Assembly: GCF_053078305.1 (NCBI RefSeq)
Contig: NZ_CP166879.1
Reading direction: 5' to 3' (one strand)
Length of the DNA stretch: 64,000 nucleotides
Shown: piece after piece, positions 41,765 to 58,814 of the stretch
How the letters are laid out: each line of letters starts with the position of its first letter
How positions within the stretch are numbered: position 1 is the first letter of the stretch
The notes under the pieces: generated by a model
The model's database searches: none
What the model was told of the DNA's origin: nothing
The model's input: only the letters and a program-made list of their open reading frames with translations
Translations under genes and position numbers: made by a program

Positions 41765-43030
41765 AAATCGCCGCGCTATACCCACCAGACTCATTCCTGC
41801 CCAGCCTACAGGACTCAGGTTACCGTAAAGAATGACCGCCAATATTGCCAGTCCACCCCATTGCAAAAAAGTATCAGGCCGGTAAAACGAAGACTTTTTA
41901 CGCGGCAGATAAAATTTCTGCATCCGTAAAAATGCCCTGCGTAAGACTCTGTTGCGTCTCCCCGTAAGAACGACCTTATCGCCTTTACGAAATAACGCTT
42001 CCAGTAATAACTGCTCTGCGGGCAGTAATACCTCATTATTTCTGGTCGCGCCTTCATTAACACGAATCAGGATTTGCTGGTTCTTATCATACTGATCTTC
42101 CAGATGAATTTTTCCTTTCACAATCAGATTTACGATATCGGCACAAAACCCTTTATCGTCGTAAACCAGCTTCGCATCGAGACGTAACATGCCGGGCGTG
42201 TAATCTGGCGGAATGACATCGGTTTCAATCACATCTACCGGCGTAAATTGCGGCCTGCGCTTCCAGAGATATAACCATCCACAAACCAGGAATAGACACG
42301 GAAACCAAATTAACAACGATGACGTGGAGGGTAAAAGAAGATGGCTGAAAATATTCGTCGTTTGTGGAGCCGGGGCATTGCTAAGTAACGAGTGAGGCCA
42401 ACGGTAGAGGACCGTGAAATCTTCACGATAAAACGGATCGCTGGATTCAATTCTTCCGTCCTCAAGGATGCGGCCATTTCGATATGTGTCGCCCTCTTCT
42501 CCAGTAAAGAGATCGATTTCGCTAAATGGATTACCCGCGATATCAGGGAACTTGAGTGAAAATCGGGTCTTATAGATTTCAAACGGCCAGTGGTTACCAG
42601 TCACGTTCCAGATTAACAGATCTGAATCTCCCTCACGCAGGAAAGCATTTTTAACCTGATAATGAATTTGATAATGATAGTCGCCTTGGGGCAAGAAACG
42701 TTGTTTATCGCCCACGACAATACTCATTAACCCGATATGCCAGTCAAGATGCCAGGGTTCAGGAATACCATCACGGGTTACGCCAACAATATGATAGTTC
42801 AGCAGTGCTGCGTCCCCATCAGGCTGCATCCAGAGTCGTGGTAAATCACGATAAAATCCGTGCTTAATCTGCTGATTTCGCGCCTGAAAATGAATGTTCT
42901 CTTTGATGTCGAGCACCCCATCCGGTTGCAGAGTGGCTTCAGAAGGGATCTCCGTGTTTTCTGCATAACTTAGAGATGATACAAACAGCCCTGCTATCAA
43001 CAGCAAAATGCAGCGAAACTTCCCTGCCAT
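41759..43030 (-). pseudogene. yciQ: yciQ 5' fragment (N-terminal part), truncated by the prophage; stop codon formed at the junction
   Basis: 423 aa ORF with signal peptide whose TGA (41759-41761) lies inside the phage terminal motif. Confidence 0.75.
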
Positions 43031-57506: not shown

Positions 57507-58761
57507 GTGAGTCACTGGGCTACATTCAAACAAACAGCAACAAATTTATGGGTGACCCTACGGCACGACATTCTCGCGCTGGCCGTCTTTTTAAATGGAT
57601 TGCTTATTTTTAAAACAATCTATGGTATGTCGGTCAATTTGCTTGATATTTTCCATATCAAAGCATTTTCAGAGTTGGATCTCTCCTTGCTGGCAAACGC
57701 CCCACTATTTATGCTCGGCGTCTTTCTTGTCCTGAACTCCATTGGCTTACTGTTCCGGGCAAAGCTCGCATGGGCAATCAGTATCATTTTGTTGTTGATA
57801 GCGCTAATTTACACCCTGCATTTTTATCCCTGGCTGAAATTTAGTATTGGATTTTGCATTTTTACGCTGGTGTTTTTGCTGATACTGCGCAAAGACTTCT
57901 CCCACAGTAGCGCCGCAGCCGGGACAATTTTTGCATTTATTAGTTTCACGACATTACTGTTTTACTCAACCTACGGTGCGCTTTATTTAAGCGAAGGTTT
58001 TAATCCGCGAATAGAAAGTTTGATGACCGCGTTCTATTTTTCGATAGAAACCATGTCAACCGTCGGCTATGGAGATATTGTCCCTGTTTCTGAATCAGCA
58101 CGATTGTTCACTATTTCGGTCATTATTTCCGGCATTACCGTTTTTGCCACATCTATGACCTCAATTTTTGGTCCGCTTATCCGCGGGGGATTCAACAAAC
58201 TTGTAAAAGGAAACAATCATACAATGCATCGTAAAGATGCATTTTATTGTTTGCGGACATTCGATTCTCGCCATCAATACGATCCTGCAACTGAATCAAC
58301 GCGGACAAAACGTAACGGTTATCAGCAACTTGCCTGAAGATGATATCAAGCAACTTGAGCAACGCTTAGGCGATAACGCAGATGTTATCCCCGGTGACAG
58401 TAATGACAGTTCTGTATTAAAGAAAGCGGGAATCGATCGTTGCCGGGCCATTCTGGCGCTGAGTGATAACGATGCAGATAACGCGTTTGTTGTACTCTCG
58501 GCAAAAGATATGAGCAGTGATGTCAAAACAGTTCTCGCCGTCAGTGATAGCAAAAACCTGAATAAGATTAAGATGGTACATCCGGATATCATTCTCTCAC
58601 CGCAACTGTTTGGCAGCGAAATTCTGGCGCGAGTTTTAAATGGTGAAGAGATTAATAATGATATGCTCGTTTCAATGTTGTTGAACTCCGGTCATGGCAT
58701 TTTCAGCGATAACGATGAACAAGAAACGAAAGCTGACAGTAAAGAATCGGTGCAAAAATAG
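57507..58761 (+). pseudogene. kch: voltage-gated K+ channel Kch with apparent +1 frameshift near 58236
   Basis: ORF from GTG 57507 matches Kch up to …NNHTMHRKD then changes frame; the downstream ORF (58237-58761) carries the Kch C-terminus from HFIVCGHSILAIN… An extra base near GATGCATTTT is the simplest explanation; a sequencing error is possible. Confidence 0.65.
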
Positions 58762-58814
58762 AGTTAAAGACGGAAAAGTAAACTTATTGGGCACCGCAAT
58801 GGTGCCCAGAACAT

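Follow-up and report, generated by a model that had tools for sequence, protein, structure and literature searches.

A one-base insertion at a putative template-switch hotspot separates the pore and RCK reading frames of Escherichia coli kch

The channel gene kch is interrupted in the stretch of Escherichia coli DNA analysed here (the window; 64,000 nucleotides of contig NZ_CP166879.1 from RefSeq assembly GCF_053078305.1, numbered from its first letter). The open reading frame listing and the sequence show the gene, at 57507–58761 on the plus strand, split into two overlapping plus-strand open reading frames, and the frames part at one additional G in position 58239. This kch is probably a genuine pseudogene that owes its frameshift to a template-switch mutation at a quasipalindrome, a site where the same base would be gained repeatedly.

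The 5' open reading frame (57507–58337, plus strand) begins with a GTG codon and encodes 276 residues, of which 244 are native and 32 are out of frame. Its native part comprises six transmembrane segments, the pore, the TVGYGD filter and the linker up to Asp244. The native sequence ends with ...NNHTMHRKD and is followed by the foreign tail AFYCLRTF...QQLA, which is terminated by a TGA codon at 58335–58337. The open frame itself extends upstream to 57489 (57489/57507–58337); the start at 57507 is the one assigned to kch by PGAP in the annotated loci L002 and L003. The 3' open reading frame (58237–58761, plus strand) lies in the +1 frame, with an offset of (58237 − 57489) mod 3 = 1. It encodes 174 residues, namely a methionine followed by the native His245–Lys417, and reads MHFIVCGHS...ESVQK. 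The complete RCK/TrkA_N domain and the C-terminal tail are contained in it. Where an intact gene has a single uninterrupted frame of 417 residues for pore and RCK domain, the window has these frames of 276 and 174 residues instead.

Residues 149–221 of the first frame, which includes the TVGYGD motif, match the Pfam profile Ion_trans_2 (E = 2.9e-16). The second frame matches TrkA_N over the full profile (1–116 of 116, E = 7.7e-21), and its identity to the crystallised RCK domain of Kch (PDB entry 1ID1) is 100%. A chance pattern of open reading frames is ruled out by these matches and by the identity to 1ID1. The break falls after Asp244, in the linker that joins the pore domain to the RCK domain. 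Removal of G58239 in silico yields one protein of 417 residues, which exactly matches a Kch sequence found on at least 1000 public contigs. Furthermore, the window is collinear with the annotated loci L001, L002 and L003, with the order yciI-kch-yciY-cls at the conserved chromosomal position. By position, domains and near-identity the gene is kch, yet it lacks a single frame and is thus a kch pseudogene.

A preliminary description of this DNA had placed a switch of frame after ...HTMHRKD, had assigned the remainder of Kch to an overlapping downstream frame and had suggested one extra base near GATGCATTTT (58220–58260). The switch is confirmed by the list of open reading frames, the sequence and the alignment with intact kch. 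The downstream frame is the one at 58237–58761, with His245–Lys417 in the +1 frame, and the extra base is exactly one, G58239, whose deletion restores the 417 residues. The comparison, for which K-12 and B strains had been named, was made with a set of 5,426 complete genomes. The uncoupling of the pore from its regulatory domain stands as a genetic description and not as a phenotype: the profile matches and the identity to 1ID1 place the two domains on separate, overlapping frames. The preliminary description mentions neither the palindrome that the G perfects nor its recurrence in many lineages, both described below.

Other features of the window lie at some distance from kch. A Mu-like prophage of ~39.3 kb (2443–41780) is inserted within yciQ, with junctions near 2442/2443 and 41780/41781. 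It contains the Mu transposase, DUF935, head morphogenesis genes and, at its right end, mom. Reference bases 1001–1004 (CCCA) are duplicated at both junctions of the prophage, and the junction with yciQ is found in no complete RefSeq E. coli genome. Near position 42941, ~29–30 bp of yciQ that are present in strain 14EC033 (L003, 2162–2190) are missing from the window; in 14EC033 yciQ is also a pseudogene, due to an internal stop.

At the site of the insertion, every intact gene reads AAAGAT-CATTTT and the window reads AAAGATGCATTTT. The additional G (58239, plus strand) destroys the wild-type Dam site GATC (GAT-CAT to GATGCAT), and its context, GAT|G|CAT, is not a homopolymer. Over 22 kb the window differs from strain 14EC033 by two indels only, namely G58239 and an intergenic T-run polymorphism. 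G58239 is thus the sole coding indel in this comparison, and the window contains many other GATC sites. The T-run polymorphism lies between kch and yciY at 58763, with TT in the window and in Res13 and TTT in nearly all other loci. Over ~3.6–4 kb, G58239 is the one difference between the window and strain Res13-Sevr-PER07-33, whose kch is intact. The assembly of the window is not noisy, and its chromosomal part is clean. We infer that G58239 is real in the window's own assembly.

The +G allele is rare among complete genomes and recurs elsewhere. An exact 101-mer match detects it in one of 5,426 complete RefSeq E. coli genomes. This lone carrier is NCCP 13963 (L001), in which PGAP labels kch 'frameshifted'; the record is noisy, with cls likewise frameshifted and further T insertions. 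No SNP separates NCCP 13963 from an independent assembly (L013/L020) over the 3.5 kb compared, and the latter has the G without the two T insertions. None of the complete RefSeq genomes has the G on the kch haplotype of the window, and a scan of GTDB representative genomes for an exact 39-mer of the window returned no match. In a public protein collection, the exact frameshift product of 276 residues occurs on 17–23 public contigs, and a look-up through the downstream gene call of 143 residues added more loci. More than 12 separate runs or assemblies contributed these contigs, and the prophages next to the locus differ among them. The 20 retrieved loci with the G are 98.4–99.1% identical to the window, and none of them is the window's own locus. 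Differences among these loci, and between them and the window, reach ~100 SNPs per 6.7 kb. The public protein look-up gave no match for the products of 282 residues (upstream GTG) and 174 residues (ATG at 58237), because gene callers use the start at 57507 and, for the second frame, a TTG at 58330. A metagenome scan gave 0 matches to the G allele, with just 21 to the wild-type 32-mer, which are too few to inform on frequency. For screening E. coli and Shigella assemblies at this site, the 20-mers CGTAAAGATGCATTTTATTG and CGTAAAGATCATTTTATTG can be used.

The G is present on at least five distinct kch haplotypes, with the nearest distinguishing SNPs 88 bp upstream and 141 bp downstream. In a sample of 25 wild-type loci, most of these haplotypes have a twin that differs by 0–1 SNP and lacks the G. 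Since the same G is found on at least five haplotypes, most of them with a G-less twin, the alleles are best read from their flanking sequence as homoplasy, that is, recurrent independent mutation and not inheritance or recombination of a single allele. The recurrence on independent lineages is also the strongest evidence at hand for a real base as opposed to an error of sequencing.

An error of sequencing or assembly would mean that the strain has an intact kch and that the G is a consensus artefact, for example a miscall by nanopore sequencing at a GATC methylated by Dam, or an error provoked by the hairpin described below. Just one base would have to be wrong, and the wild-type site is a Dam site. 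Moreover, the sole carrier among complete genomes is a noisy record, with its T insertions and frameshifted cls, and the sequence of two metagenome scaffolds is broken at just this site. However, the context offers no homopolymer, and no other coding indel occurs in 22 kb despite the many GATC sites. A systematic error at an invariant sequence should strike many assemblies, whereas the G occurs once in 5,426 complete genomes; on this count, a nanopore miscall at Dam sites as the systematic cause was rejected. The same allele is shared by more than 12 assemblies that are independent and otherwise clean; in one of them the G seen in NCCP 13963 recurs and the T insertions of that record are missing. 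An artefact is therefore improbable. The two scaffolds (L021 and L023, both ENA metagenome scaffolds) have gaps of 10 N exactly at the quasipalindrome, at positions equivalent to 58205–58245 of the window, which suggests breaks of the assembly graph caused by strain mixtures or by the palindrome itself.

The insertion lies within an imperfect inverted repeat. In wild-type kch it reads AATGCATC-GTAAA-GAT^CATT and has a single bulge, the unpaired C58227. The left arm AATGCATC (58223–58230, plus strand) contains the ATG of Met240 (58224–58226) and the base that is bulged in the wild type. The loop GTAAA (58231–58235, plus strand) and the right arm GATGCATT (58236–58243, plus strand; GAT-CATT in the wild type) were located by a hairpin fold and a repeat search. 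With G58239 paired to C58227, the stem is a perfect one of 8 bp with a loop of 5 nt, and the repeat search returns the same arms. The repeat is part of an extended imperfect palindrome (58211–58252, plus strand) with an outer stem of 7 bp, AAACAAT/ATTGTTT (58211–58217 and 58246–58252). The minimum free energy of the DNA hairpin changes from −1.8 to −7.1 kcal/mol with the G (ΔΔG −5.3; z = −5.2 relative to shuffled sequences). In a ranking by hairpin stabilisation of 5,012 one-base insertions enumerated for kch, the G at 58239 comes second.

As controls, nine neighbouring one-base frameshifts with the same N-terminus were taken, and the contigs with the exact product of each were counted. Six of the nine are found on no contig, deletion of a T in a T4 run and insertion of a G in a G5 run on 6 contigs each, and deletion of a G in the G5 run on 143; the observed insertion at 58239 is on 17–23. 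These controls support a hotspot at 58239. The deletion in the G5 run (58185–58189), which gives a product of 232 residues and whose contigs include a 5-Mb chromosome, is the commonest kch frameshift tested. Simple slippage cannot produce the G at 58239, since this position is not in a repeat run. The reciprocal correction of the hairpin, deletion of C58227, has no product in the public protein collection, which could reflect strand bias, selection or sampling. Additionally, eight other top-ranked hairpin-stabilising insertions in kch are all absent from the collection. Perfection of a hairpin alone therefore does not predict recurrence, and besides hairpin stability another factor must contribute, such as the geometry of the site, strand bias or selection.

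Two further kinds of insertion were observed in and near kch. At a position equivalent to 58230 of the window, locus L016 has a different insertion in the same quasipalindrome (ATGCATC to ATGCATCC), with a product of 242 residues on 2 contigs, which hints at more than one kind of fragility in the quasipalindrome. Insertion of a T recurs in the motif CAGTTC (giving CAGTTTC), with two cases in NCCP 13963, in kch and cls (equivalent to 58531 and 59230 of the window), and another in a kch product of 319 residues (P0002) on 7 Logan contigs. It is either a systematic sequencing error at this motif or another hotspot.

Quasipalindromes are established hotspots of template switching in E. coli, and the mutations make the repeat more perfect (PMC7202029, PMC6357072). 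Three properties of such mutations are found at kch: the ancestral repeat is imperfect, the new base has its template in the other arm, and the event has occurred repeatedly and independently. A fourth, correction of either arm, is not seen, as only the G and no deletion of C58227 was found. The arrangement of the arms points to the following origin. During replication, a nascent strand ending in ...GAT would fold back onto the left arm just copied, where GAT would pair with ATC and a G would be copied opposite the unpaired C58227. After return of the strand to its proper template, the product would be the perfect 8-bp inverted repeat with a +1 frameshift after Asp244. Alternatively, misalignment on the direct quasi-repeat ATGCAT...AT-CAT may give the same G. 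Both routes have the same product because ATGCAT is itself palindromic. With such a hotspot, the same allele would arise repeatedly in unrelated E. coli and stay rare.

Given the orientation of the gene in K-12 and an intramolecular switch, the insertion in kch would presumably be a lagging-strand event. This fits poorly with published work, according to which the leading strand is the one more prone to induced template switching (PMC6357072). Switching becomes more frequent when ExoI/ExoVII are lost and under AZT, 5-azaC or fluoroquinolones, and the orientation relative to replication matters (PMC7202029, PMC6357072). In the literature searched, no paper links kch to quasipalindromes or template switching, and the hotspot appears to be undescribed so far.

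The insertion would abolish the normal RCK-gated channel. What remains would be a shortened pore protein that ends in 32 nonsense residues, and a free RCK domain that is, at most, inefficiently expressed. Most likely, the allele is null or nearly so and has a small cost. As growth of kch knockouts is not detectably altered (PMC2234077), losing kch probably costs little, and a null allele of small cost fits an allele that keeps arising and yet stays rare. The gain-of-function mutations reported in the same work all map to the RCK domain (PMC2234077).

Full-length Kch might still be made by a programmed +1 ribosomal frameshift or by other recoding. A slip of tRNA-Lys from AAA to AAG at 58233–58236 would indeed restore the frame with a single change, D244M. 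However, recoding sites are conserved across relatives, and the interrupted form of kch is not a conserved gene structure but a derived one that is rare (1 of 5,426 complete genomes). Inspection of 58200–58340 revealed no stop or rare codon in the A-site, no upstream Shine-Dalgarno stimulator and no downstream structure; the hairpin across the site is all the structure there is. Such recoding is highly improbable. Programmed frameshifting and transcriptional slippage were rejected for want of conservation, a slippery run and stimulators.

Alternatively, the allele could be tolerated or favoured with the two pieces assembling to a functional channel, in which a pore subunit combines with a free RCK subunit started at the ATG at 58237. 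This ATG is created by G58239 itself; it lies 13 nt downstream of Met240 and is in frame with the whole RCK domain. The mutation offers a possible start to a frame that takes in the whole TrkA_N profile and all of the crystallised RCK domain, and it is the only nearby frameshift that does so. It is commoner than most of the neighbouring frameshifts, and deletion of C58227, which creates no ATG, is not found. Moreover, the linkers of Kch-type channels carry methionines proposed as internal starts, with Met240 as a putative natural one (PMC2920069).

Against this, no Shine-Dalgarno sequence is seen 5–10 nt before the ATG at 58237, and the nearest candidate, AAGGA, is not at a usable distance (~25 nt upstream). 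Both AUGs, that of Met240 and that at 58237, are paired in a predicted mRNA hairpin (58211–58252) whose energy falls from −8.4 to −15.3 kcal/mol with the G. The start at Met240 is within this predicted hairpin in wild-type kch too (−8.4 kcal/mol, z = −2.1), and the predicted fold could matter for the question whether RCK is ever produced as a separate protein. The pore piece, furthermore, carries the nonsense tail, and the allele is rare, scattered and fixed in no lineage seen. According to a passage in PMC2920069, which cites Kuo 2003, removal of the putative internal start left expression and function of Kch unchanged. A channel of two pieces is therefore unlikely. There is a similarly small chance that the allele persists for reasons beyond recurrent mutation, either through a two-subunit channel with altered gating or because certain niches favour repeated inactivation of kch. 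The preferred reading remains a pseudogene that arises from a mutational hotspot.

The kch gene of the window should accordingly carry an annotation as a frameshifted pseudogene. As loss of kch has no known laboratory phenotype, the pseudogene is routine and the hotspot is of modest interest. The recurrence concerns a non-homopolymer insertion across unrelated E. coli, exactly as quasipalindrome template switching predicts. To our knowledge, natural examples of template switching in bacterial populations are few (thyA, rpsL). The insertion in public genomes could serve as a free reporter, in the wild, of template-switch mutagenesis, which is reportedly strongly stimulated by fluoroquinolones. 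It also cautions against taking the same frameshift in different strains as a sure sign of common ancestry or of a common sequencing error. The insertion adds one more case to a known class of mutation and opens no new class.

Compared to E. coli Kch (417 residues, six transmembrane segments and RCK domain, 1ID1), the gene of the window has the same locus, the TVGYGD pore and an identical RCK domain, but its frame is broken after Asp244 and pore and RCK domain are on separate frames. Separate RCK polypeptides are known from other systems: MthK has an additional soluble RCK domain, and KtrAB and TrkAH have a separate RCK protein. In the kch allele, a pore frame likewise stands beside a complete RCK frame with its own ATG. 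The separate RCK domain of MthK, KtrAB and TrkAH is conserved and expressed, whereas that of kch results from a rare accident and has no evident ribosome-binding site. The slippage frameshifts of the G5 run (58185–58189) are likewise recurrent one-base changes that truncate Kch near the boundary of pore and RCK domain, but the insertion at 58239 is outside any repeat run. The closest counterparts are the known quasipalindrome hotspots of E. coli (the natural hotspot in thyA and the lacZ reporters QP5 and QP6, as described by the Ripley model). The change in kch perfects the repeat in the same way, the inserted base complements the unpaired base of the other arm, and the change recurs independently. 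In contrast to these hotspots, the one in kch is deduced from homoplasy in natural populations and not from a mutation rate, its stem is short (8 bp) and A/T-rich, and of the two possible corrections one, the inserted G, is seen.
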